The notes under the pieces are model-generated. The model had not been told where the DNA came from and made no database searches. It saw nothing but the letters and a program-made list of their open reading frames with translations. From positions 1 to 52,257 of the forward strand of contig JAZUDR010000328.1 of assembly GCA_045639725.1 (NCBI GenBank): DNA of 52,257 nt, written 5' to 3'. This document shows positions 1 through 52,257 of this stretch, piece by piece. Position numbers and translations under genes: made by a program. How positions within the stretch are numbered: the stretch's first letter is position 1; each line of letters opens with the position of its first letter. This DNA is from Candidatus Avigastranaerophilus sp. Lineage in GTDB: Bacteria; Muiribacteriota; Ozemobacteria; Ozemobacterales; Ozemobacteraceae.

Positions 1-244
1 GAGCTATGAGCTATAAGCTATAAGCTATAAGCTATAAGCTATAAGCTATAAGCTATAAGCTATAAGCTATAAGCTATGAGCTATAAGCTATAAGCTATAA
101 GCTATAAGCTATAAGCTATAAGCTATAAGCTATAAGCTACAAGCTATAAGCTATGAGCTATGAGCTATGAGCTATGAGCTATAAGCTATAAGCTATAAGC
201 TATAAGCTATTAAGCTTCCTGCTTCAGGCTTCAAGCTTCAAGCT
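1..244. repeat. Heptanucleotide tandem array A: (A/G)AGCTAT x30 followed by 5 reverse-orientation GCTTCNN-type units; truncated by window start
   Basis: Read directly. Units keep perfect 7-bp phase from 1 to 210. The unit is AAGCTAT, with GAGCTAT in units 1, 2, 12 and 23-26 and one AAGCTAC at 134..140. Positions 211..245 read TAAGCTT CCTGCTT CAGGCTT CAAGCTT CAAGCTT, the reverse complement of the GAAGCYN/GGAAGCA units at 35817..36075 and 49579..49611. The last unit ends on the first base of the stop codon (245..247) of the minus-strand ORF. Confidence 0.95.
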
Positions 245-715
245 TTATTCTTCTTCTGGTTTGGTCTTTATGCTGCCAAACAGTTCAGTGCATTTCTTTC
301 TTTGGGAAACAGTTAATTCAGGATACCATCGATACATCAGTTTGTTGGACATGAATTCTGCTGTAATAACAAAACCTTTTCTTGTCTCGATTGCGAACAT
401 GTCTGCGTCTTTCTTTGGTTTACTGAAAGCAAAACCGCGTTCTGCGCAGAATGATTGATAGAATTCACAACACTGCTGGAAGGTAGTCCCGACATTGATG
501 TCACATTCACCAAACAATTCTCTGTTGGCATCGGTCAGACGTTCAGAATATGGTGGCATAGGAAGCACAACATCTACGCCTTTCATATCATAAATCATGA
601 TATTGCCTTTTGCTCTGAAAGATACATATCCAAAATAGCCAAGGCCACAGCAAAGGATGAAAAGTATAAGTGTATTTAAGGCAGCTCCGCCTTTTTTGTT
701 AAAAAAACTATGCAT
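245..715 (-). CDS. Hypothetical membrane-anchored protein (156 aa)
   Basis: The ORF track gives 245..724, starting on GTG. I prefer ATG at 715 because GAGGTG lies 6 nt upstream on the minus strand. There is one N-terminal hydrophobic helix (LNTLILFILCCGLGYFGYV). No family recognised by eye. Confidence 0.55.
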   Translation of the reverse strand: MHSFFNKKGGAALNTLILFILCCGLGYFGYVSFRAKGNIMIYDMKGVDVVLPMPPYSERLTDANRELFGECDINVGTTFQQCCEFYQSFCAERGFAFSKPKKDADMFAIETRKGFVITAEFMSNKLMYRWYPELTVSQRKKCTELFGSIKTKPEEE

Positions 716-11490: not shown

Positions 11491-11966
11491 AGATAGCTGT
11501 CTATCCAGGAAGCTTTGATCCATTTACCAATGGCCATCTTGATATTCTGAAGCGTGCTGCTTCATTGTTTGATCATGTAATTGTAGGTGTTCTTGTTAAT
11601 CAGAGCAAGAACTGCCTTTTCTCTCCGGAAGAACGTGTTGATTTGATTCACGAAGTAACTAAAGATATTGAAAACGTCAGAGTTATTCATTTCAATGGAT
11701 TGCTGGTTAATTTTTGTAAAAAGGTTGGGGCAAACGCTGTTATAAGAGGTCTTAGAGCCGTTTCTGACTATGAATATGAAGTTCAGTTGTTTGCGGCCAA
11801 TTATCATTTGGAACCAACTGTTGAAACTGTTTTCTTGATGTCTCAGCCAAAGTATTCGTTCCTGAGCTCAAGTGTAGTAAAGGAAATAGCATATTATAAC
11901 GGTGATATTGAGGATATGGTATCACCTGTTATTGCAGAAGCGATTAAAAACAAAATGAAGAAGTAA
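11487..11966 (+). CDS. coaD: Phosphopantetheine adenylyltransferase
   Basis: AVYPGSFDPFTNGHLDIL, RGLRAVSDYEYE and SSSVVKE motifs. ATGA overlap with maf. Confidence 0.95.
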   Translation: MKIAVYPGSFDPFTNGHLDILKRAASLFDHVIVGVLVNQSKNCLFSPEERVDLIHEVTKDIENVRVIHFNGLLVNFCKKVGANAVIRGLRAVSDYEYEVQLFAANYHLEPTVETVFLMSQPKYSFLSSSVVKEIAYYNGDIEDMVSPVIAEAIKNKMKK

Positions 11967-12001
11967 AAAAAGACCCGCTCAACTGAGCGGGCCTTTTTTT
12001 T
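11965..12001. terminator. Bidirectional rho-independent terminator between coaD (+) and nifS (-)
   Basis: Stem CCCGCTC (11974..11980) pairs with GAGCGGG (11985..11991). It is flanked by an A-run upstream and a T-run downstream, so it can work on both strands. Confidence 0.85.
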
Positions 12002-14238: not shown

Positions 14239-14955
14239 ATGAAGAACTTAGCTAATACATTAAAAGCAATTTCAATCGCAGCATTAATGGTTCCGGCTAT
14301 AAGCATGGAAGCTAACGCATCTGTACATTTCCACAGCGTAAAAGCAGGTGGATTTGTATCTCAGATGTCTTCTGCGGTAACTGAAGTTATTAATGTAAGA
14401 CCTGAAAAGGAAGAAAAAGCAAAGTTCTTTAATACAACAGATGTAGCCTGCTCAAAAGTAGGTGCTGTTAAGACTTACACTATTAAGATTGTTGATAAGA
14501 AGCCAAGAAAGAAAGATAACTTCGAAATAAAAGGAGTTTATGACGATTCTGGCGATGCAACAGTCACAAGGTTTTTGAACAGACCAGTAAATGGCGTTCT
14601 GACCTCTGCCTTTGGTTATAGAATACATCCAAAGCGCAAAAGAAAACATTTCCACTCAGGCGTTGATCTTGCAGCAAAAAGCGGAACACCAATCGCTTGC
14701 GCCGGCTCAGGCAAGGTAGTATACGCTGGTTGGAAGTCAGGTTACGGTTACGTAATAATGGTTGACCATGGCCGTGGCTATGAAACCTTATACGCACACT
14801 GCTCAAAGTTGTCGGCTACAGTAGGGCAGACCGTAAGTGCAGGGAAGATTATTGCATATGTCGGTAGAACAGGCGTAGCAACAGGCCCGCACCTCCACTT
14901 CGAAGTAAGAAAGAATGGAGCCTATCAGAATCCAATGAGATATCTGAAGAATTAA
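14239..14955 (+). CDS. M23 (LytM-type) metallopeptidase, secreted, 238 aa
   Basis: Signal peptide MKNLANTLKAISIAALMVPAISMEANA. HSGVDLAA ... GYGYVIMVDHG ... GPHLHFEVRKNG is the HxxxD / HxH zinc signature. Confidence 0.85.
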   Translation: MKNLANTLKAISIAALMVPAISMEANASVHFHSVKAGGFVSQMSSAVTEVINVRPEKEEKAKFFNTTDVACSKVGAVKTYTIKIVDKKPRKKDNFEIKGVYDDSGDATVTRFLNRPVNGVLTSAFGYRIHPKRKRKHFHSGVDLAAKSGTPIACAGSGKVVYAGWKSGYGYVIMVDHGRGYETLYAHCSKLSATVGQTVSAGKIIAYVGRTGVATGPHLHFEVRKNGAYQNPMRYLKN

Positions 14956-14960
14956 AAAAA

Positions 14961-14992
14961 TACCTCGGTAAAAACACCGAGGTATTTTTTTT
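14961..14992 (+). terminator. Rho-independent terminator after the M23 peptidase gene
   Basis: Stem TACCTCGGT (14961..14969) pairs with ACCGAGGTA (14976..14984), followed by T8. Confidence 0.85.
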
Positions 14993-15159
14993 GTTAATAA
15001 ATGTTAAGTTTTTGCACTGTGCTTAAAAATTGAACAGCGTTGTTTGGCTTTGTTTATATTTGTTCAAGTATGTCTTAATTTGTTAAAAAACTGCTAATAA
15101 TAAGATTGTGGCGGCCGATAAGTTTAATATCAAAATAAAATTATAAGTTGGTATTAAAT

Positions 15160-33650: not shown

Positions 33651-35825
33651 GTGAATAATGACAGTATAACAGTAACTATTGAACGTATAACCTTTGCAAA
33701 TGAGCAGAACGGCTACCACGTATTAAAAGCCTCCGGGCGCGATTATCCGAATGGTGTAACGCTAGTCGGTAATTTTTGCATGATTCAGCCCGGTGAAGAA
33801 ATAAAGGCTTATGGGACCTGGGCCTGTCACCCGACCTTTGGCATGCAATACCAGACCTCACATTATACTGTTCTTAAGCCCGCAACCTTGAAGGGAATAG
33901 AAAAATTTCTCGGCTCCGGTCTGATAAAAGGCATTGGGCCTGTAACAGCAAAAAGGCTTGTAAAAACCTTCGGCATTGATACGCTTGAAATTATAGAAAA
34001 CCATCCTGAAAAACTGGCTGAATGTCCAGGCATCGGTCCAAACAAAGCAGACAAGATATCTCAGGGGTTCTTTTTGCATCGTTCAATTCAGGATATAATG
34101 GTCTTTCTGCAAGGCCATGGAATTTCAACAGCTTATGCCGCAAGGATATTTAAAAGGTATGATAAGGAAGCCATAAAAAAGGTTTCGGAGAATCCGTATA
34201 TTCTTGCTGATGAAATACCTGGTATTGGTTTCAAGAAGGCAGACGACATTGCTGCCGAATTCGGTATTATTGGAAATGACCAGCGCCGTGTTACTGCAGG
34301 TATATTCTATACACTGAACTCTGTAAATAAAGACGGGCATCTCTTTTTGACAAGTGATGAGCTTTTTAAACTGTCTGGTGAGACATTGGGAATAACAGAC
34401 GAGAATCTGGTTGCCAATGCATTGAATTCACTGGTGACTTCAAAAAAGATTATTTTAAGAGAGTATGATGACCGAAAACTTTATTATCTACCAAACAATT
34501 TTTACTCTGAAGCTAAGAGCGCCTTTTTTGTAAAACGTCTTGCTTCATGTGCTAGAAATATTCCGAGAGATCAACTGACTGCAGTCTTAGACCAGGCTAT
34601 GGAGGCTCATGGCTTAAAATTGAGTGATATCCAGCAATTTGCCGTAGAAACTTCACTTACAAAGGGACTTGTTATTATTACTGGCGGCCCTGGAACTGGT
34701 AAGACAACTACCTTGAAGGCAGTTGTAATGGCTCACAAGGCCATGGGGCATAAGGTTCTTCTTGCTAGTCCTACAGGAAGAGCCGCTAAGAGATTGACAG
34801 AGGTTTCTGGTTTTGAGGCATCTACTATACATAGATTATTGAAGTATGACCATCAGATCCATGGCTTTAAGCATAACCATGAAAGCCCGTTAGATTGTGA
34901 TGTTCTCGTTATAGACGAAGCATCAATGGTAGATATGAGCTTGTTCTATTCTGTTGTTCAAGCCGTTCCTCAAAGAGCTTCACTAGTGCTTGTGGGTGAT
35001 GTTGACCAGCTTCCATCTGTTGGGGCAGGGCTTGTTCTTAATGAACTTATACGTTCTGGCATTGTGCCTACGGTCGTATTGAATACCATTTTCAGACAGG
35101 CAGAAACATCTGATATAATAAAGAATGCTCACCTTATCAATAAAGGGCAGATGCCTGTTCTTACAGTTCCTGACGGGAGAGCAAAGACAGATTGCTATTT
35201 TATTAGTGCAGACCCGGTTGATAAGGTAATCGATTTGTTAAAGAATGTCGTAGCAAAGAGTTTGCCGAAGAAATTCGGTTATGTTCCTATCAGAGATATT
35301 CAAGTGCTGACTCCAATGAATAGAGGTCCACTAGGCGCTGTTGCTCTGAATTCCGTGCTGCAGGGAATACTTAATCCGCCATCTCCTGAACGCGCTGAAA
35401 TTCAGCATGCTGGCCGAGTGCTCAGGGTGGGGGACAAGGTTATTCAATTAAGGAACAATTATGACCTTGATGTATTCAATGGTGATATTGGGGTTATTAC
35501 CGAAATAGACCCTGAAGAGCAGGAAGTTACTATCGATTTCCCTCAGGGGACGGTAGCTTTTCAGAGTGCTGATTTTGTAGATCTTGCTCATGCTTATGCT
35601 GTAACTATACATAAGTCACAGGGAAGCGAGTATCCTGCGGTTGTTATGATTGCGCACACCCAGCATTATATGATGCTTCAGCGCAACCTTGTATATACGG
35701 GTCTTACCAGAGCAAAGAAGACAATGGTTTTTCTAGGTACACAGAAGGCTATTAGTATAGCTGTGAACAACAATAAGATAAAAGCTCGCAATACTATTCT
35801 GGCTGAGCTGCTGAAGGAAGCTTGA
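33651..35825 (+). CDS. recD2: RecD2-type SF1B ATP-dependent DNA helicase
   Basis: ITGGPGTGKTTT (Walker A), VLVIDEASMVD (Walker B), LVGDVDQLPSVGAG, TIHKSQGSEYPAV and LVYTGLTRAK motifs. GTG start. The stop TGA (35823..35825) is built from the first units of array B. Confidence 0.9.
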   Translation: MNNDSITVTIERITFANEQNGYHVLKASGRDYPNGVTLVGNFCMIQPGEEIKAYGTWACHPTFGMQYQTSHYTVLKPATLKGIEKFLGSGLIKGIGPVTAKRLVKTFGIDTLEIIENHPEKLAECPGIGPNKADKISQGFFLHRSIQDIMVFLQGHGISTAYAARIFKRYDKEAIKKVSENPYILADEIPGIGFKKADDIAAEFGIIGNDQRRVTAGIFYTLNSVNKDGHLFLTSDELFKLSGETLGITDENLVANALNSLVTSKKIILREYDDRKLYYLPNNFYSEAKSAFFVKRLASCARNIPRDQLTAVLDQAMEAHGLKLSDIQQFAVETSLTKGLVIITGGPGTGKTTTLKAVVMAHKAMGHKVLLASPTGRAAKRLTEVSGFEASTIHRLLKYDHQIHGFKHNHESPLDCDVLVIDEASMVDMSLFYSVVQAVPQRASLVLVGDVDQLPSVGAGLVLNELIRSGIVPTVVLNTIFRQAETSDIIKNAHLINKGQMPVLTVPDGRAKTDCYFISADPVDKVIDLLKNVVAKSLPKKFGYVPIRDIQVLTPMNRGPLGAVALNSVLQGILNPPSPERAEIQHAGRVLRVGDKVIQLRNNYDLDVFNGDIGVITEIDPEEQEVTIDFPQGTVAFQSADFVDLAHAYAVTIHKSQGSEYPAVVMIAHTQHYMMLQRNLVYTGLTRAKKTMVFLGTQKAISIAVNNNKIKARNTILAELLKEA

Positions 35826-36075
35826 AGCTTGAAGCCTGAAGCCTGAAGCTCGAAGCCTGAAGCTTGAAGCTTGAAGCCTCAAGCTCGAAGCTTGAAGCTG
35901 GAAGCTGGAAGCTGGAAGCCTGAAGCTTGAAGCTGGAAGCTTGAAGCTCGAAGCTGGAAGCCGGAAGCCTGAAGCTTGAAGCTTGAAGCTCGAAGCTGGA
36001 AGCCTGAAGCTTGAAGCTGGAAGCTTGAAGCTGGAAGCTGGAAGCTGGAAGCCTGAAGCTTGAAGCTCGAAGCCA
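35817..36075. repeat. Heptanucleotide tandem array B: GAAGC(T/C)N x37
   Basis: Counted unit by unit. There are 37 units in unbroken 7-bp phase. GAAGC is invariant except for one CAAGC. The last two positions vary (TT, CT, TC, TG, CG, CA). Degenerate units extend to 35810 and 36103. An identical 42-bp (6-unit) block occurs at 35887..35928 and 36020..36061. Confidence 0.95.
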
Positions 36076-36165
36076 AAAGCTAATGGCCAAAAGCGAAGTG
36101 CAACGAACTTTGACATCTACTTGTAAAATATATCAAGTTTTTTTGAAAAAAATTTTGAGCCCCCC

Positions 36166-39878: not shown

Positions 39879-39924
39879 ATTGATTAGATTTTGCGTTGTT
39901 ATCGGATATTGGCGCTATTTCCTA

Positions 39925-39959
39925 ATTGAAAATTGAGAATTGAGGATTGAGAATTATTG
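39925..39959. repeat. Short heptanucleotide array ATTGA(A/G)(A/G) x5
   Basis: ATTGAAA ATTGAGA ATTGAGG ATTGAGA ATTATTG in 7-bp phase. Lies between the convergent stops of the ankyrin gene (39878) and rsmD (39970). Confidence 0.6.
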
Positions 39960-39969
39960 GTATTATGCA

Positions 39970-40527
39970 TTAATTCTTGTCGGCTAGGCGGAAATAGGTG
40001 CAGACAGTGGCGCCGTAGGTGCGTTCGTCTAGGAGCTTGTAGTCTGGGTTTTCTTCAATGCCGATTATGTCTTTTTTCTGACGTTCTATAATGAATAGAG
40101 TATCGTGCGTGAACAGCGGGCATTGTGGAATATATTTCAGAACTGGGTCTAACAAGCCTTTAAGATAAGGCGGGTCAATAAATACTATATCAAATGGTTC
40201 AAGAGTAGCTGTTTCCATGAACTTCATAACGTCCATGCAGAATACTTCGCCCCTGTCATCCAGCTTGCACATAACAAGGTTTTCTTTTATCGTCTTTGCA
40301 CATTCTCTGGACATATCGACAAAGGCGCCATAACTTCCGCCACGGCTCAGGCCTTCGATGCCCAGATTCCCAGAACCGGCAAAAAGGTCTAGAAAACGGG
40401 CTCCGTCAACTAGAGAGGCAATAATATTAAAGGTAGAGCCTTTGACTTTATCCATTGCTGGACGAGTCTGACCACCACCTGGCATTTTAAGAATTCTTCC
40501 TTTGGCACTGCCGGTAATAACACGCAT
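39970..40527 (-). CDS. rsmD: 16S rRNA (guanine966-N2)-methyltransferase RsmD
   Basis: RVITGSAKGR ... FLDLFAGSGNLGIEGLSRG ... FIDPPY motifs. Confidence 0.85.
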   Translation of the reverse strand: MRVITGSAKGRILKMPGGGQTRPAMDKVKGSTFNIIASLVDGARFLDLFAGSGNLGIEGLSRGGSYGAFVDMSRECAKTIKENLVMCKLDDRGEVFCMDVMKFMETATLEPFDIVFIDPPYLKGLLDPVLKYIPQCPLFTHDTLFIIERQKKDIIGIEENPDYKLLDERTYGATVCTYFRLADKN

Positions 40528-45274: not shown

Positions 45275-46366
45275 ATGGCAGACGAAAAAAGCTTATATAG
45301 ATTATTAAAACTTACATTTGACCAGAACGCATCAGACTTGCATCTGAAGGTCGGTAAAATTGCGTGTATCCGCGTCGACGGGCATATTACACCTGTTGAA
45401 GGTTATAAGTTCAGTAAAAATGATTTCGAAAAAATCATCGAAGCTTTGCTGAATCCTGAACAGGAAGCGCAGTTCCGCAAAAATCATGAGCTTGACTTTG
45501 CTTACACCCTTGAAGGTGTTTGCCGCTTCAGAGTAAATCTTTATACTGATTTAAACGGTCCGGGTGCTGTGTTCAGAGTTATTCCATACCGTGTTATGGA
45601 TTTTGATGAGATAGGGTTGCCCAATGCTGCCCGAAGGCTGATTGAGCAGCCAAATGGTCTGATTCTCATTACCGGCCCCACAGGCGCTGGCAAGACTTCG
45701 ACTCTGGCAAGCTATTTGAGTTACGTAAATCAGAATGCAAAGCGTCACATTGTGACTCTTGAAGACCCGATTGAATACCAGTTTGAAGATCAGTTGTCTT
45801 TTTTCAATCAGCGCCAGGTTGGTGTTGACTGCAGAAGTTTCTATGAAGGTCTTTTAACAGTATTGCGACAGGACCCAGACATTGTTGTCGTAGGTGAAAT
45901 GCGTGACCCGGAAACGATTTCATTGACTCTAAATGCTGCAGAAACTGGGAAACTTGTTATCGCAACTTTGCATACCAATTCCGCTGTTGCAACTGCTGAA
46001 CGTATTGTTAATGTTTTCCCGGAAGACAGACACAATCAGATTCTTTTGCAGCTTTCTATGGTATTGCGCGGCGTTGTTTCCCAGACTTTGCTCAGAAGAA
46101 CAAATGGCGGTCGTGTTGCTGCTTTTGAACTTCTGTTGAATACTTCTGGGGTAAGAAGCCTTATAGCCGAAGGTAAGATCCACATGCTTCCATCTTATCT
46201 TGAAACAGGTGGCGAAACTGGTATGATGACAATGGAAATGTCATTGGCCCAGCTTGTAAAGGATAAGATAGTTACTCCTGAAGAAGCTTTTGCTTCCGCT
46301 CCGAATCCAAATGCTTTGCGTAAGCTTTTAATGCCAAAGCCAATGCAGAGTCAGGTTCAGGGTTAA
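45275..46366 (+). CDS. pilT: Type IV pilus retraction ATPase PilT (copy 1, canonical motifs)
   Basis: ASDLHL N-terminal block, GPTGAGKTST (Walker A), TLEDPIEY (Asp box), DPDIVVVGEMRD (Walker B plus catalytic Glu), ATLHTNSA (His box), GVRSLIAEGK. Confidence 0.9.
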   Translation: MADEKSLYRLLKLTFDQNASDLHLKVGKIACIRVDGHITPVEGYKFSKNDFEKIIEALLNPEQEAQFRKNHELDFAYTLEGVCRFRVNLYTDLNGPGAVFRVIPYRVMDFDEIGLPNAARRLIEQPNGLILITGPTGAGKTSTLASYLSYVNQNAKRHIVTLEDPIEYQFEDQLSFFNQRQVGVDCRSFYEGLLTVLRQDPDIVVVGEMRDPETISLTLNAAETGKLVIATLHTNSAVATAERIVNVFPEDRHNQILLQLSMVLRGVVSQTLLRRTNGGRVAAFELLLNTSGVRSLIAEGKIHMLPSYLETGGETGMMTMEMSLAQLVKDKIVTPEEAFASAPNPNALRKLLMPKPMQSQVQG

Positions 46367-46376
46367 GGAGGATTGA

Positions 46377-47420
46377 ATGCAGACTTTAAAGATACATAGA
46401 TATTTTGACATAGCTATTGAACGTCAAGCCTCTGACCTTCATTTGAAGGCTGGTTCACCACCAATCATCAGAGTCGGAGGTCGTCTTATTACATTAGCCG
46501 AAGAACCTCTTGCCTTCCAGGAAATGCCAAACCTTTTTCTGCCATTGATGGAATTGAAGGACCAGCAGGACCTTAAAACAAGATTTGAAGCTAACTTTAT
46601 GACTGCCTACAAGAGCCGTTTTAGAGTCAGAGCTTGTATATATACACAACGCGGCTGCCTCAGCGGCGCTTTCCGATTTATTCCTCAGAATGTGCCTTCA
46701 ATTGAAAGCTTAGGTCTGCCACCTATTCTGAAGGATATCGCACAGCTCCCGCGCGGTCTTTTCCTTGTTACTGGTCCGGCAAACTCAGGCAAGACTCACA
46801 CTCTTGCTGCAATTATTAACGAAATTAACAAAACCTCGGCCCGTCACGTAATTACTATTGAAGACCCTATAGAATTTGTTTACCGCGAAAAGAAATCTAT
46901 TTTCACCCAGCGCGAAATAGGTGTAACTTCGAATAGCTATTCAAGCGCTCTTATGAACGCTTTGCGCGAAGACCCGGATGTAATTCTCGTTGGTGAAATG
47001 CGCGATGTGGATACGATTGAAATGGTTCTGACTGCCGCGGAAACAGGTCACCTGGTTTTCTCGACTCTGCATACTGTTGGCGCTGTTCAGACCATAGACC
47101 GTATTGTAAATATGTTCCCAGGCCATAGACATGATGAAATCAGAACTCAGTTGTCTATGTCACTCATAGGAATTATTTCGCAGATATTGCTACCAAGCCT
47201 CCATAAAAAGGAACGCGTAATGGCACACGAAATAATGATTATGAACTCAGCAATGAGAAATCAGGTAAGAGAAAAGAAAACAAATCAGCTTAAGTCTGCC
47301 TTGATGCTTGCACGTAAGGACGGTTGCAAGACCTTGAAGGACTCTTTGTCTGAAATCCTAAAAGATGAACGCGTTGATCCAAAGCTTATCGCTAACATCA
47401 TGAGAGAAATTGTAGAATGA
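46377..47420 (+). CDS. PilT/PilU-family ATPase (copy 2, canonical motifs)
   Basis: GPANSGKTHT, TIEDPIEF, DPDVILVGEMRD and STLHTVGA. AAGGAGG Shine-Dalgarno sequence; start lies 10 nt after the pilT-1 stop. Confidence 0.85.
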   Translation: MQTLKIHRYFDIAIERQASDLHLKAGSPPIIRVGGRLITLAEEPLAFQEMPNLFLPLMELKDQQDLKTRFEANFMTAYKSRFRVRACIYTQRGCLSGAFRFIPQNVPSIESLGLPPILKDIAQLPRGLFLVTGPANSGKTHTLAAIINEINKTSARHVITIEDPIEFVYREKKSIFTQREIGVTSNSYSSALMNALREDPDVILVGEMRDVDTIEMVLTAAETGHLVFSTLHTVGAVQTIDRIVNMFPGHRHDEIRTQLSMSLIGIISQILLPSLHKKERVMAHEIMIMNSAMRNQVREKKTNQLKSALMLARKDGCKTLKDSLSEILKDERVDPKLIANIMREIVE

Positions 47421-49576
47421 CGAAGCAACAACAAAACGAAGATATTGAAGCATTTAGATATGTAAAAGCTGGTAGAAGGCTGATGAAGCCTATTACAGAT
47501 AAGCTTGAAGCACTCGTTAAGAACGAGGATATATCTGACGAACTAAGGTTTGAAGCATTGATAAGTCTTGGTAAAATTGGCGATAACGAATCTTTGCCGA
47601 CTTTGACAAGAATTTTCAATGAATATCCAGACTACTTGGAACCTATTACTGCCTTAGGGCATTATAAGAGCAGCACTCCTGTTTCAAAGCTTATCGAACG
47701 ACTTCAGGACCCCGATTCCCTCTATAAGGAAGAAATCGTCAGAGTTTTGGGTGAAATCGGTGACCCGATGGCTACTAAGACTTTGATGGAGCTCCTTCAT
47801 GATGAAGACAGAATGGTTCGCTATTATTCTGCCAGAGCTCTTTACAAAATGGGTGGCCGCGATGTTGTTCAGGCTCTTTGCAGCTTGCTTAATGACCCAG
47901 ACGAATGGATTGTTATTAACGTTCTTGAAATTCTTTCCAAAATGAAGGACCCGGATGCTATACCAGCTTTGGTAGGGCAGTTTGAAGTAATCAGGGACTC
48001 ACGTCTTAAGGCTATTATCATTTCGTCTCTTGCTAATTTCGCTGAAAGCAAGCTTCTTAAGACCTTTGAAAGCGCTTTGGATTCATTTGATTCACGTATT
48101 CAGGCTAATGCCGTTGAAGCTATTTCAATGCTCAAGATACCTGGCCCAGAAATGAAAAGAAAGCTTAAACGCTTCTACGGTCATCCAAATAACAGAGTCA
48201 GGGCAAATATGTGTATTGCTCTGGCTAATGCTGATACAAAAGCCGTTTTTGAAGAAATAGGCTGTATGCTTGTAAGCCGTGATGCTTCCACAAGACGTTC
48301 TGCTGCTTATGTTCTTGCGAGAATTGATTGTGAAAAGAGAAGCGAATATATTCATACTTTGCTTGAAGATGAAAACTTTGGTGTCAGAAAGATGGCCCTC
48401 AGAGCAGCTCTGGCATTGGGCGATGCTGTAGGTGTTACAGAAATCAAGCCTTTGCTGAATGATGAAAATCAGTGGGTTCGCCGCGAAGTTGTTGAATGTG
48501 CTCTTGGTATGGACGATTTCCCGAACGACCTGATTCTTGCCCGTTTGAAGAAGGAAGATTGTCCTCCTGTTGTTGAGCTTTTGCTTAAATATGTTGTAGA
48601 CAGGCATTTGTATGAAGCCGTTCCGATGATTTATGAACGCATCAAGAGGGAACCAGAAGAAGAAATGCCGTGGCTCATTTCTGCATTAGGTCACTTGGGT
48701 GCTGTAAAAGAGCTTAATCAGGCTAAGAAATTCCTTAGTGCGGTTAGAGCCAGTGTATTTGTAGAATACTATCAGGCACTTTTGTTGAACGGCGACCTGA
48801 GCATATTCAAAACCATATCTGATAATCTTGATGAAAAGAAACGTGAACAGGAGCTTCTTTCCTGGACAAACGTCGCAGGTGTTCTTGGCAACTTTATTCA
48901 GGATACTAAGTCATATTCAAGAGTTTTACTGGAAGCTCTTGGACGTGAAGTCAAGATTGATATGGGTGAACTAGCAGATGATGCTGTTGCGGGTGCTGTT
49001 GAAAATACAGACGAACTCATGGCTAAGGGGCGTGAATTCTATCTCGTAAAAGACTACAGCCGTGCTTCACAGCATTTTGAAAAGGTTGTTGCTGCCCGAC
49101 CCCATGATCTTGATGCCCGTTATTTGCTGGCAAATTGTTCTTATTACCTTGGTGACGCTAACAGAGCATGTGACCTTCTTGAAAAGATTCTTGTTGCAAA
49201 GCCTTCACATATTGATGCTGGTATTCTGCTTGGTCAGATGTATTTCAGACGTAAGGACTGGAAGCAACTGGCAGACTGCTACAATAAATTGAAGGATTTC
49301 ATCAAAAGTGACGATAAAAAGAATGAAATCAGGGTTTATGGCGCACTGGGGCTTGCATACTTCAATCTGAAGCATTATGAAGAAGCTATAGAAGCTTTGA
49401 ATAGAGGGTTGAAGGCAAATCCCCGTGACCTGTCGTCTTCCTACCACCTGGCTCTATGCTATTATTCTGTTGGTAATGCTGAAAAGGCCAGAACAATTCT
49501 TGAAGGTCTGAGAAAGACCTTGCCGCCTGATAGTCAGGTATTGAAGAACGTTCTCGAGTTGCTGCAGAGGATGTAG
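47417..49576 (+). CDS. HEAT (PBS-lyase-like) repeat + C-terminal TPR protein, paralogue B (719 aa)
   Basis: HDEDRMVRYYSARALY, NDPDEWIVINVLEIL, HPNNRVRANMCIALA, DENFGVRKMALRAAL and NDENQWVRREVVECAL units, then about five TPR units. ATGA overlap with PilT copy 2. Confidence 0.8.
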   Translation: MTKQQQNEDIEAFRYVKAGRRLMKPITDKLEALVKNEDISDELRFEALISLGKIGDNESLPTLTRIFNEYPDYLEPITALGHYKSSTPVSKLIERLQDPDSLYKEEIVRVLGEIGDPMATKTLMELLHDEDRMVRYYSARALYKMGGRDVVQALCSLLNDPDEWIVINVLEILSKMKDPDAIPALVGQFEVIRDSRLKAIIISSLANFAESKLLKTFESALDSFDSRIQANAVEAISMLKIPGPEMKRKLKRFYGHPNNRVRANMCIALANADTKAVFEEIGCMLVSRDASTRRSAAYVLARIDCEKRSEYIHTLLEDENFGVRKMALRAALALGDAVGVTEIKPLLNDENQWVRREVVECALGMDDFPNDLILARLKKEDCPPVVELLLKYVVDRHLYEAVPMIYERIKREPEEEMPWLISALGHLGAVKELNQAKKFLSAVRASVFVEYYQALLLNGDLSIFKTISDNLDEKKREQELLSWTNVAGVLGNFIQDTKSYSRVLLEALGREVKIDMGELADDAVAGAVENTDELMAKGREFYLVKDYSRASQHFEKVVAARPHDLDARYLLANCSYYLGDANRACDLLEKILVAKPSHIDAGILLGQMYFRRKDWKQLADCYNKLKDFIKSDDKKNEIRVYGALGLAYFNLKHYEEAIEALNRGLKANPRDLSSSYHLALCYYSVGNAEKARTILEGLRKTLPPDSQVLKNVLELLQRM

Positions 49577-49578
49577 TT

Positions 49579-49611
49579 GGAAGCAGGAAGCTGGAGAGCA
49601 GGAAGCAGGAC
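49579..49611. repeat. Short heptanucleotide block GGAAGCN x~5
   Basis: GGAAGCA GGAAGCT GGAGAGCA GGAAGCA GGAC. Starts 3 nt after the stop at 49576. Confidence 0.6.
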
Positions 49612-49650
49612 ATTATTATATACGAAGCAAGTATAATGTTTGTTGCAATA

Positions 49651-49685
49651 GGCTATTGGCTCTTAGCTTTTGGCTGTTGGCCGAG
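49651..49685. repeat. Short heptanucleotide block GGCTNTT x5 (opposite orientation to the AGC-core units)
   Basis: GGCTATT GGCTCTT AGCTTTT GGCTGTT GGCCGAG in 7-bp phase. A third short block, GGAAGCA GGAGAGC TTAGAGC, lies at 49701..49721. Confidence 0.55.
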
Positions 49686-49759
49686 AACAAGCAGGCCGAC
49701 GGAAGCAGGAGAGCTTAGAGCTTATTTATGAAAAATTACTAATGAAGAAAGGGTTTTTG

Positions 49760-50806
49760 ATGTCTGAATTAGTTAAAATATGGGACTTGGTTAAGGCAAA
49801 GAAGCCTTCTGATATTCATTTGTCTCCGAATCAGAGGGTATATTACAGAGTAAATGGTGTGCTTGAAAAGCTTGATACCATTGTTACAGAAGACCAGATT
49901 AAGAAAATTATCCTGGCCACTAGCACTCCTAAGGCTAGAGAAATACTTGGTCATCAGCGCCAGGTTACTTATGCTGAAAATGTAGATGGCATCGGTCGTT
50001 TGAGATTCTCCGCTTTCTTTGAACGTGGCCGTTTTGCTATTTCTCTTCGCGTTATTGAAGATAGCTTTATGGAACTTGAAGACCTTGGAATCAATGAAAT
50101 GCAGAAAAAGGCTCTTTTCCAGCAGTCAGGTCTTGTGCTTGTAGGTAGCCCGTCCTGTGAAGGCAAATCTACAACAATTGCCTCTATTCTGAATTACATG
50201 AACCATAACTTCCAGAAGAGCATTTATACCATTGAAAACCCTGTAGAATTTGTATATCAGGATGATAAGGCAGCCTTCATACAGCGCAGTATTCCAGTAG
50301 ATATTTCCAACTTCTATAATGGTCTTTGTGAAGCTTACCGCGTAGACCCGGATGTAGTTGTTACTGACTCAGTTGTTTATGCTGACGCACTCGATCAAGC
50401 CCTTACCCTTGCTGAATCCGGGTGCTTGGTAATTGCTTCAACTGACGGTGGTGACTGCCTCCAGATTATTGAAAGACTTACAGGTCTCAGAGTTCCTGAA
50501 GAACGTGAAAATCTTAGACAGAGAATTGCTAACCAGCTCAGAATGATTATAAGCCAGAGACTTGTGCCTACGATTAATAACGAAAGCCGTAAGCCGATTT
50601 TCGATATTATGATAAACACTGTTCAGATGAAGGACCTCATCAAGAAGAACAATGTCAGCATGTTCAGAACAATTCAGAGCCAGAAGGAAGCAGATGGTAT
50701 GCGGACTTTTGACAAGCAGCTTCAGAACCTTGTTGGTAAGAAGATTATTTCTATGAAGACTGCCATTGAATTTGCAATTGATAAGAACAAGTTTGTTGCT
50801 ATATAA
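49760..50806 (+). CDS. PilT-family protein with degenerate catalytic motifs (copy 3, 348 aa)
   Basis: PSDIHL N-terminal block and PilT-like length. The motifs are altered: VGSPSCEGKST (first P-loop Gly lost), TIENPVEF (Asp to Asn), DPDVVVTDSVVYAD (no GEMRD) and ASTDGGDC in place of TLHT. GAAAGGG Shine-Dalgarno sequence lies 6 nt before ATG 49760. The track start 49670 lies inside the repeat block. Confidence 0.75.
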   Translation: MSELVKIWDLVKAKKPSDIHLSPNQRVYYRVNGVLEKLDTIVTEDQIKKIILATSTPKAREILGHQRQVTYAENVDGIGRLRFSAFFERGRFAISLRVIEDSFMELEDLGINEMQKKALFQQSGLVLVGSPSCEGKSTTIASILNYMNHNFQKSIYTIENPVEFVYQDDKAAFIQRSIPVDISNFYNGLCEAYRVDPDVVVTDSVVYADALDQALTLAESGCLVIASTDGGDCLQIIERLTGLRVPEERENLRQRIANQLRMIISQRLVPTINNESRKPIFDIMINTVQMKDLIKKNNVSMFRTIQSQKEADGMRTFDKQLQNLVGKKIISMKTAIEFAIDKNKFVAI

Positions 50807-50817
50807 GAGGTGAAGCC

Positions 50818-51858
50818 ATGGATGTGAAAAAGTTAATTGAAAAAGTTGTTACATTAGGCGGTAATGAATTACATCTTAAGATTGGTTCTCAGCCTCTTAT
50901 CCGAAAGAATAATAATTTGACTGCCATGGATATGCCAGCTTTGATTGAAGCAGACATGACAAGTCTTATTGAAGATCTCTTGACTTCAGATGAAGCTGCA
51001 AAATTCAGTAAGACTGGTGTTTTTGAAGCAAATCATTTTGGTCAGCCACCCTGCAATTTCAGGCTTTCATTATTCCATTCTCAGCAGAAGCCAGTTGCTT
51101 ATATAAAGCTGATAAAATCTGAAATTCCTACAGTAGAAGAAATTGGTTTCCCAACAAGCGTTTCCAACCTGCTGAGTTCACCAAAGGGATTGATGATTCT
51201 TACAGGTCCGTCCCGTTCCGGAATTTCTACCTCAATGGCTGCTTTGGTAGAACATATGAACGCAAAATACAAGAGACATATTCTTGTAATAGAAGACCCG
51301 ATTCAGTATTACTATGAACCGAAGGAATGCATTATTTCCCAGCGTCAGTTCTCAAAGGATATTTTCATGGTCGAACAGGGGATTAACTTTGCAAAGCGCA
51401 TGGATGTTGATGCTCTTGTTATTGGTGACCTCAAACGTGATATTCCTTTTAAGAATGTAATGGAATATGTTGCCGGTGGTAATCTGGTAGTGCTCTGTAT
51501 GCAGACCCTCGGTGCCGTTGCTGCTCTTGAAAAGATTGTATATTCATTCCCAGAAAACTATAGAGATTTTGTAAATCAGGTTCTTACCGAAAACCTGCTT
51601 GCAGTCTGCTCTCAGACATTGATTACCAATTCATCTGGAGTAAATGTTCCGATACACGAAGTATTCATTCCTAATAAGAACACTGAAAATATTACTCAAT
51701 ACGGTAAGTATCAGCAGCTTGAAGGTAATATAAGCACTGCTGGTGCAGGTAGCAGATTGTTTAGGGATGAACTCAAGGATAAGATTGCTGCCGGTAAGCT
51801 TGATAAAGCTTCTGCAGACGTTTTCTTCGAAGCTTATAAAGGCACTAGATTGCAATAA
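50818..51858 (+). CDS. PilT-family protein with degenerate catalytic motifs (copy 4, 346 aa)
   Basis: GNELHL N-terminal block. GPSRSGISTS (P-loop Lys to Ile), VIEDPIQY retained, ALVIGDLKRD (Glu to Asp) and LCMQTLGA (His to Gln). AGAGGTGA Shine-Dalgarno sequence; start lies 11 nt after copy 3. Confidence 0.75.
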   Translation: MDVKKLIEKVVTLGGNELHLKIGSQPLIRKNNNLTAMDMPALIEADMTSLIEDLLTSDEAAKFSKTGVFEANHFGQPPCNFRLSLFHSQQKPVAYIKLIKSEIPTVEEIGFPTSVSNLLSSPKGLMILTGPSRSGISTSMAALVEHMNAKYKRHILVIEDPIQYYYEPKECIISQRQFSKDIFMVEQGINFAKRMDVDALVIGDLKRDIPFKNVMEYVAGGNLVVLCMQTLGAVAALEKIVYSFPENYRDFVNQVLTENLLAVCSQTLITNSSGVNVPIHEVFIPNKNTENITQYGKYQQLEGNISTAGAGSRLFRDELKDKIAAGKLDKASADVFFEAYKGTRLQ

Positions 51859-51860
51859 AA

Positions 51861-52042
51861 TAAAGCTCTAAGCTATAAGCCTAAAGCTTGCAGCTTAAAG
51901 CTTAAAGCCTAAAGCCTAAAGCCTAAAGCTTAAAGCCTAAAGCATAGAGCCTAAAGCTTAAAGCTTAGAGCCTAAAGCTTATAGCTTATAGCTTATAGCC
52001 TAGAGCTTAGAGCTTAGAGCTTATAGCTTATAGCTTATAGCT
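51861..52042. repeat. Heptanucleotide tandem array D: T(A/G/C)NAGC(T/C/A) x26
   Basis: Counted unit by unit. There are 26 units in unbroken phase (TAAAGCT, TAAAGCC, TAGAGCC/T, TATAGCT/C, one each of CTAAGCT, ATAAGCC, TGCAGCT and TAAAGCA). The array begins 3 nt after the pilT-4 stop. Its last base is the first base of the recN-like stop codon complement. Confidence 0.95.
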
Positions 52043-52248
52043 TAATTAGTAAGTAACGAACGGGCGAAGGTTAAGCCGTCTTTATCTGTTCGGCCAAGCA
52101 TTCTTGCGATTTCTTCGACACGTTCATCGCCTTCGACACGGTTAATATGAACTTCGGTCTGGTCACCGTTAACAGTTTTGGTAACAGTGAAATGATGAGT
52201 TCCTTCTTTGGCAATCTGGTGAAGATGAGTTACCAATAAAACCTGTTT
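52042..52248 (-). CDS. recN: RecN C-terminal fragment (68 codons), bounded upstream by an in-frame TAA 9 nt from the window edge
   Basis: KQVLLVTHLHQIAKEGTHHFTVTK ... ERVEEIARMLGRTD ... ARSLL matches the RecN C-terminal QV(L/I)xVTHLPQ(V/I)A ... E(I/L)ARMLGG region. The frame contains TAA at 52249..52251 (minus strand), so the gene may be disrupted. See findings. Confidence 0.6.
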   Translation of the reverse strand, partial: KQVLLVTHLHQIAKEGTHHFTVTKTVNGDQTEVHINRVEGDERVEEIARMLGRTDKDGLTFARSLLTN

Positions 52249-52257
52249 TTAAGTCGG

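Follow-up and report, generated by a model that had tools for sequence, protein, structure and literature searches.

A hypervariable heptanucleotide array between the converging ends of pilT-4 and recN in a Riflebacteria-like genome

The pilT-4 and recN genes converge near the end of the window, by which we mean the whole stretch of 52,257 nucleotides analysed here, and the space between their stop codons is occupied by a tandem repeat of 7-bp units, array D. The question raised by this locus is whether the array acts as a 3' element for the two genes, as proposed in an initial annotation made from the sequence, or is a repeat that is tolerated where they end. Array D belongs to a group of heptamer arrays with an AGCY core found in this Riflebacteria-like genome, it is polymorphic between strains, and it is absent behind the pilT-4 genes of related species. 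We consider it likely that array D is a hypervariable heptanucleotide repeat of the long-simple-sequence-repeat or STRR kind, tolerated in a gap that contains no promoter. The discovery is modest in that this kind of repeat is already known, and a function of array D in stopping transcription is an unproven proposal.

Structure of array D and its flanking genes

Array D (51861-52042) consists of 26 head-to-tail heptamers in uninterrupted 7-bp phase, all in direct orientation, and is non-coding by its placement between two stop codons. Tandem Repeats Finder reports the segment 51861-52045 with period 7, 26.4 copies, 83% matches and the consensus TAAAGCT. The triplet AGC recurs 26 times at exact 7-bp spacing (51864-52041), and base-shuffled versions of the window, used as a control for this phase, contain 0.02 AGC runs of at least three per shuffle, against which 26 in-phase units are far above chance expectation. 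Positions 4-6 are A, G and C in all units, whereas position 3 is A in 14 units, T in 6, G in 5 and C in 1, and position 7 is T in 17, C in 8 and A in 1. The unbroken phase described in the initial annotation thus stands, but the strict pattern T-N-N-A-G-C-Y that it assigned to every unit fits 23 of the 26, the exceptions being unit 2 (CTAAGCT), unit 3 (ATAAGCC) and unit 12 (TAAAGCA). Variants occur in homogeneous runs, exactly as had been listed: TAAAGCC three times, TATAGCT twice followed by TATAGCC, TAGAGCT three times and TATAGCT three times. The AAGCTT palindrome, also pointed out earlier, is present across unit junctions. Scans of the heptamer arrays against Rfam and for tRNAs gave no match.

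The earlier description of the gap as almost pure array is borne out at both edges. Only the dinucleotide AA lies between the pilT-4 stop codon (TAA, 51856-51858) and the first unit, and the last unit, TATAGCT (52036-52042), shares its final base with the complement of the recN stop codon (TTA, 52042-52044). Stop codons are found within array D at 8-12 per frame on both strands. The features of the locus and of the remaining heptamer arrays are listed in Table 1.

Table 1. Positions of array D, its neighbours and the other heptamer arrays in the window.
Feature	Position	Strand	Description
Array A	2..245	-	In the sense of a minus-strand 156/159-aa gene (stop complement 245-247), GAAGCTT-type units x5, then TATAGCT x30; truncated by contig end
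Array B	35817..36080	+	About 37 units GAAGCTT / GAAGCCT / GGAAGCT; recD2 TGA stop (35823-35825) in first unit; next gene codirectional
Short array AATTGAG	39924..39955	.	4.6 copies; convergent gap between ankyrin gene and ORF 39970-40527
Array C, composite	49577..49724	+	Between HEAT/TPR gene and pilT-3; GGAAGCA-type units, unique core of about 45 nt, GGCTATT-type units, AGAGCTT x2
pilT-4	50818..51858	+	Divergent PilT/PilU-family paralogue, PF00437; last of pilT1-pilT2-HEAT/TPR-pilT3-pilT4 cluster
Candidate recN-sense terminator-like site	51853..51889	-	12-pair stem 51889 to 51863, then TATTTTATTG, the complement of the pilT stop region; consensus scan only
Array D, fixed proximal block (units 1-5)	51861..51895	.	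TAAAGCT CTAAGCT ATAAGCC TAAAGCT TGCAGCT; identical in all eight assemblies
Array D, hypervariable core	51896..52042	.	21 units TA[A/G/T]AGC[C/T]; 9, 17, 23 or 31 units in other conspecific strains, order different in each
recN, 3' end	52042..52250	-	Stop complement overlaps the last array D unit by one base

As for the flanking genes, pilT-4 scores 211.9 bits against TIGR01420, which is under the cut-off of 319.1. The Walker A lysine is replaced (GPSRSGIS) and the Walker B region reads IGDLKR instead of VGEMRD, and because of these two alterations the product is probably not an active ATPase. The gene is the last in a conserved cluster (45275-51858) that comprises four PilT-like genes and one for a HEAT/TPR protein. 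On the other side, the full-length ORF in contig L001 is RecN (TIGR00634, 464.5 bits; cut-off 407.85). In the window, recN runs into an in-frame stop at 52249-52251, but the idea of a recN pseudogene was rejected as a contig-end artefact: the last seven bases of the window, 52251-52257 (TAAGTCGG), are unlike those of all other assemblies (GCTGACCA...).

Variation of array D between strains

Seven contigs obtained from different samples and assemblers were identified by an exact-protein look-up with PilT-4. Their DNA is 99.2-99.5% identical to the window, and array D is present in all seven of these conspecific contigs. The five assemblies that span the gap, including the window, contain 14, 22, 26 (window), 28 and 36 units in gaps of 99, 155, 183, 197 and 253 nt, respectively, and all differences are multiples of 7; a length polymorphism between strains, which the initial annotation had proposed to look for, is thus found in steps of whole units, with counts that are provisional and approximate because short-read assemblies may mis-size repeats longer than a read. 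The first five, degenerate units and both flanks are identical in all assemblies, whereas the six unit variants of the interior are arranged differently in every contig. Between the arrays of different strains, edit distances counted in units are 11-23, compared with 2-7 differences per kb in the flanks, and one contig (L003) contains multi-unit duplications within the array. Array D is among the fastest-changing sequences of the genome, and the arrays are useful as strain markers for this uncultured Riflebacteria-like species.

Since these comparisons rely on assembled contigs, it has to be asked whether the array or its length differences could be produced by short-read assembly. The arrays, at 182-252 bp, are longer than a typical short read, contigs end inside arrays at several places (the window start, L005, L007 and L140-L142), and contig L006 joins array D to another locus. 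Against this, the first five units and the flanks are the same in eight assemblies, which come from different samples and represent two assembler styles, and in the five spanning assemblies lengths differ by exact multiples of 7 and the variants follow distinct orders. Because independent assemblies all carry array D (8/8; its absence there would have counted against the reading in the initial annotation) and do so with distinct interiors, we regard the array as real, and an origin of it or of its length variation as an assembly artefact as extremely improbable. Arrays do cause contig breaks and chimeric joins in assemblies of this species. In L006, the sequence exits array D after 9 units, from position 2246, and continues into another locus (…TAACGTGTTAGAC…, CTAACCC x2 and a 772-aa ORF); this contig is probably a chimera, formed via another TAAAGCY array of this genome.

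Copy-number variation as extreme as this is also a property of contingency loci, in which the repeat number acts as a phase-variation switch for a neighbouring gene, and heptanucleotide switches are described for Haemophilus promoters in the part of the literature consulted (PMC8262952). Such a locus needs a site in a reading frame, a promoter or a 5' leader. Array D lies 3' of both genes and outside all three, and its length changes leave both proteins unaltered, so that we can attach hardly any credence to a role as contingency locus.

The variation is best explained by slippage. The initial annotation had read the homogeneous runs as a sign of stepwise local slippage, and the whole-unit changes between assemblies agree with that reading. 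We infer that array D grows, shrinks and is reshuffled by slipped-strand mispairing together with unequal exchange of at least one unit at a time; polymerase slippage is the proposed cause of long simple sequence repeats in general (Mrazek 2007, as cited in PMC4679880). The constancy of the degenerate first five units is as expected if interruptions block slippage. The array would persist since neither a promoter nor a start site, which it could damage, is present in the short gap where the two genes converge, and a change in its length would never extend either gene because every unit carries stop codons on both strands. Array D would appear to be gap-filling only since the ancestral spacer may have been at most a few tens of bases long.

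Sister arrays in the genome, in relatives and in metagenomes

Within the 52-kb window, array D is accompanied by arrays A, B and C and by a short AATTGAG array (Table 1). Array A, which reads AGCTATA x30 followed by AAGCTTC x5 on the plus strand, is positioned in a convergent gap with a pullulanase-like gene, as seen in contigs L135 and L136. In L135, which derives from a different species, the array has 60 units and is directly followed by AAAAAAAAACCGCTCATCGGTGATGAGCGGTTTTTTTT, a classic bidirectional terminator. In the conspecific contigs L136 and L139, the TATAGCT array is absent and about 110 nt of unrelated sequence is found between the same flanks and terminator. Because array A is terminator-adjacent in one species and missing from these two contigs, heptamer arrays can occur together with a real terminator and can disappear with no obvious effect. 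The replacement sequence (L136 11560-11670; L139 2855-2965) is G+C-rich and looks hairpin-capable (GAACTCGCCCCTGCGAGG...CCTTCAGGGGGAAGG...). Variation is seen in the array C region as well, where the number of GGAAGCA-type units differs between strains and where about 100 nt of the composite block are tandemly duplicated in L001 and L002 (8640-8942). Exact-protein look-ups with the gene beside array A (one) and with the gene after array B (two) gave no match, probably owing to differently called gene starts. In L026, a contig from a related metagenome-assembled genome (MAG), four heptamer arrays are found within 4.4 kb.

Arrays A, B and D all start at the stop codon of the adjoining gene or at most 2 nt from it, and have an identical polarity in the sense of that gene (GAAGCTT..., TATAGCT... 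and TAAAGCT...). This explains the relation, correctly noted in the initial annotation, that the TATAGCT tail of array D is the reverse complement of the array A unit AGCTATA (window 2-216): the polarity relative to the upstream gene is the same, and the relation reflects only that the upstream genes are on opposite strands. A polarity that follows the upstream gene and not the chromosome strand is not predicted by pure replication slippage; with n = 3-4 it is suggestive but not significant.

The AGC core, invariant in 26 of 26 units while positions 3 and 7 vary, and the AGCY cores common to arrays A, B and D could point to heptads that serve as sites for a sequence-specific DNA- or RNA-binding protein, the array being a regulatory or nucleoid-organising platform; a hypothesis of this type was proposed earlier for the TAACTGA repeats of Beggiatoaceae (PMC4679880). 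No candidate protein was found, however, nor a regulated target, both neighbours having their ends here. Outside the arrays, AGCT and AAGCTT occur about as often as expected (ratios of 0.96 and 1.06, respectively), and arrays with unrelated units (AATTGAG, CATAATT, CTAATAC and GAATGGA) are present in the same genome and its relatives. A binding platform is therefore very unlikely in our judgement. By the same two ratios, the idea that the arrays are collections of restriction sites (AGCT for AluI, AAGCTT for HindIII) was rejected.

Outside this lineage, a scan of genome collections for six AGCY cores at 7-bp spacing, which is an unspecific pattern, identified true 7-bp arrays of 6-47 units in many phyla among the matches listed. 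The TAAAGCY unit occurs in at least four consecutive copies in at least 120 unrelated metagenome contigs (L143-L262), the GC content of which is 29-72%. Among the matches listed, the median array has 5.5 units and the longest 26, and these arrays are spread over all gap types. An apparent 2.5-fold enrichment in convergent gaps shrank when the comparison was made against the other gaps of the same contigs (16/62 versus 50/333; p = 0.04), and was gone under stricter ORF criteria. Many of these contigs have the stop codon of the AGCTTTA-strand gene at the final unit junction (-1, -8, ... nt away), as for recN here, and by crude ORF calls about 10 of 18 arrays are at most 9 nt from the stop of the AGCTTTA-strand gene compared with 4 of 19 on the other side, which suggests that TAAAGCY arrays are polarised relative to gene ends.

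Some further features of the arrays and their surroundings can be noted. The minus strand of the array B region (35733-36116) is stop-free in every frame and gives rise to spurious ORFs (98-127 aa) that repeat every 7 residues; the final codons of recD2 (…KEA and stop) may be array-derived. Related species have a TAACTGA-like array upstream of pilT-1 (L133, 64-144) and two AATTAGG/AATGAGT arrays (L132, 14456-14498 and 14645-14689). A dispersed element of about 45 nt is positioned next to heptamer arrays at three loci (window 49610-49650, L006 2246-2300 and L026 4205-4256), with a weaker copy at L026 3825-3850. It contains TATAC[C/G]AAGCAAGTATAA, a TTATAC/GTATAA inverted repeat and a TATAAT-like box, and might be a candidate promoter cassette or a small mobile element.

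Terminator potential of the junction and known kinds of heptamer repeat

The pilT-4 orthologues of five related species (61-74% protein identity) are not followed by an array, but instead by a classic hairpin-plus-T-tract terminator 10-50 nt past the stop codon (for example AAAAAAGCTTCCTGAATGGAAGCTTTTTTT and AAAAAAGCTCCCTTCCCGGGAGCTTTTTTT), with folding energies of -15 to -17 kcal/mol and z-scores of -4 to -4.7. Because the downstream neighbour of pilT-4 also differs in the related species, the pilT-4/recN junction is species-specific. Genuine terminators in the window have energies of -22 to -25 kcal/mol and z-scores of -6 to -7. Elsewhere in the window, convergent genes are separated by classic bidirectional terminators (11965-12000 and 14955-14995), not by arrays, or they overlap, and array A stands beside a terminator; the possibility raised earlier, that convergent pairs elsewhere are separated by arrays only, is not what these gaps show.

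Either strand of array D can fold into a single long imperfect hairpin, with -69.8 kcal/mol in the pilT sense and -84.3 kcal/mol for the minus strand, in agreement with the self-complementarity that had been recognised from the unit sequence. The energies of all haplotypes are about -0.35 to -0.48 kcal/mol per nt. The corresponding z-scores against dinucleotide shuffles, -1.1 and -3.0, are poor evidence, since such shuffles keep the AGCT-rich composition and fold well, and because they fold almost as well as the array itself, composition accounts for most of the fold stability. The two strands are not equivalent. Units that end in C can form G-U pairs on the minus strand only, and in the recN sense only, an uninterrupted stem of 12 pairs (10 Watson-Crick and 2 G-U pairs) is built from the fixed units 1-4 and followed by UAUUUUAUUG. 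The local fold of this region is -15.4 kcal/mol in the recN sense; in the pilT sense the value is -10.2 kcal/mol and the fold contains two C-A mismatches. The match to a terminator in the recN sense is weak, with 4 G-C pairs and the tail TATTTTATTG. In the pilT sense, a consensus scan and local folding revealed no U tract, no G+C-rich stem and no terminator site in array D. The symmetric, orientation-independent element envisaged in the initial annotation is not supported by a hairpin and U-rich tail in one sense only or by the better folding of the minus-strand RNA, nor by the range of array lengths, the absence of array A, another array in a convergent gap, from some strains, and a preference for convergent gaps in metagenomes that is at most weak.

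The most economical reading of the sequence is that transcription would include array D in a 3' untranslated region, probably that of recN, and would run to a predicted weak terminator at the pilT end, where the hairpin is followed by the U-rich site, leaving pilT-4 without a recognisable terminator. The long RNA hairpin could have an incidental effect on termination or RNA stability.

An effect of this kind is central to the alternative that array D is a selected 3' element, in which an RNA hairpin on either strand halts RNA polymerase, makes it pause or keeps out 3' exonucleases, replacing a terminator and insulating pilT-4 from recN. The favourable folds of both strands and of all haplotypes, the recN-sense hairpin with its tail and the presence of the array in all assemblies are consistent with this explanation, as is the lack here of the A-tract/hairpin/T-tract terminators that follow pilT-4 in the relatives. 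Moreover, the stems of those terminators (AAAAAAGCTTCC... and AAAAAAGCTCCC...) resemble TAAAGCT, and the array may have been seeded by a terminator arm. On the other hand, the pilT sense has neither a G+C-rich stem nor a U tract, the z-scores are weak where composition alone gives stability, and a 2.5-fold range of lengths combined with a scrambled interior does not suggest a tuned structure. Array A lies beside a fully classic terminator and can be absent, arrays B and C are located between codirectional genes, and TAAAGCY arrays elsewhere show no clear enrichment in convergent gaps. We consider a selected 3' element possible, but unlikely.

The preferred reading, a tolerated slippage repeat, would make array D nearly neutral. 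Against strict neutrality it can be held that at least 14 units are present in every spanning assembly, in a gap without a classic terminator. Since the relatives and other gaps of this genome have such a terminator and this gap has none, some selection for a structured element is possible. In a more specific version of this idea, which appears doubtful to us, a length-variable heptamer array has replaced a classic bidirectional terminator in this lineage and provides a two-way RNA hairpin barrier without a U tract, and may have been seeded by slippage of an ancestral AAAGCT stem arm. If true, the conversion of a terminator into a microsatellite would be a route by which 3' ends evolve. What bacterial heptamer arrays do has been a question since the STRR reports, and the array D locus offers a clean natural experiment: near-identical strains have 14-36 units, a classic terminator is retained behind the same gene in sister species, and array A occurs in some strains and not in others, next to a terminator that is intact either way.

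With respect to known repeats, array D shares the convergent position and the self-complementarity of both strands with bidirectional terminators and with REP/BIME elements. Unlike intrinsic bidirectional terminators, it does not have a G+C-rich stem with a U tract and a 5' A tract, whereas the real terminators of this genome have both the stem and the flanking A/T tracts. REP/BIME are palindromic units of 35-40 nt, often in alternating orientation, at the 3' ends of genes, and array D differs from them by its 7-bp units in direct orientation. The agreement is much closer with the long simple sequence repeats of prokaryotes (units of 5-11 nt), which are likewise head-to-tail, intergenic, present several times per genome and unstable in copy number. 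Array D has the copies, the non-coding site, the accompanying arrays and the whole-unit variation of a heptanucleotide repeat of the long-simple-sequence-repeat or STRR type, and no difference in kind is apparent; the unit family TA[A/G/T]AGC[C/T] and a Riflebacteria host are absent from the papers searched, and no report of such heptamer repeats in Riflebacteria was found in that literature. In most prokaryotic genomes, heptamers are more abundant than any other class of such repeats, according to Mrazek 2007 as cited in PMC4679880.

The STRRs of cyanobacteria (Calothrix, Nostoc and Anabaena, for example at hupS-hupL) resemble array D as 7-bp tandem repeats that are intergenic or 3' of genes and hairpin-capable. 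The classic STRR units are CCCCAGT, TTGGTCA and CAACAGT, whereas the unit of array D is TAAAGCT-like and its host belongs, by RecG, to Riflebacteria and not to Cyanobacteria or Melainabacteria, so that array D differs from strict cyanobacterial STRRs in both host and STRR1-3 unit. STRRs are described as hairpin-capable 7-bp repeats without known function, for which transcript stabilisation has been suggested (PMC2670836). TAACTGA direct repeats in Beggiatoaceae, Cyanobacteria and Bacteroidetes are intergenic, reach 43 copies in some species and are mostly found just upstream of start codons, where a role in translation was proposed (PMC4679880). They are heptamer direct repeats like array D, but array D follows two stop codons. 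The GGGAATC and GGGGATT arrays of Xanthomonas and Nostoc are intergenic and genome-wide, are found in gaps of every type and lack conservation at orthologous genes, with 16% of the Xanthomonas heptamers between convergent and 7-8% between divergent genes (PMC4692102). These units are G-rich and form quadruplexes, in contrast to the A+T-rich units of array D with their palindromic AGCT/AAGCTT core and hairpins.

The assignment of the host rests on RecG, for which the best named relatives are Ca. Riflebacteria (82%), Ca. Rifleibacterium (64-69%) and Ozemobacter (44-47%), and the relatives of PilT-4 give the same picture. The contigs L135 (JAZRWI010000055.1) and L026 (JAZRWI010000074.1), which show synteny with the window and 76-90% nucleotide identity to it, are part of the MAG JAZRWI01, which has the NCBI label Ca. 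Avigastranaerophilus (Melainabacteria). A cyanobacterial or Melainabacteria kinship based on this label was dropped, since RecG and PilT point to Riflebacteria, and the MAG is probably mislabelled or mixed. A deoxyhypusine-synthase-family protein was uninformative for the lineage, with Bacteroidales at about 79% as nearest named relatives, and RecG was used in its place. This identity is much closer than the rest of the genome predicts, and a horizontal transfer of the gene is suggested by the sequence comparison. [quoted passage not shown]
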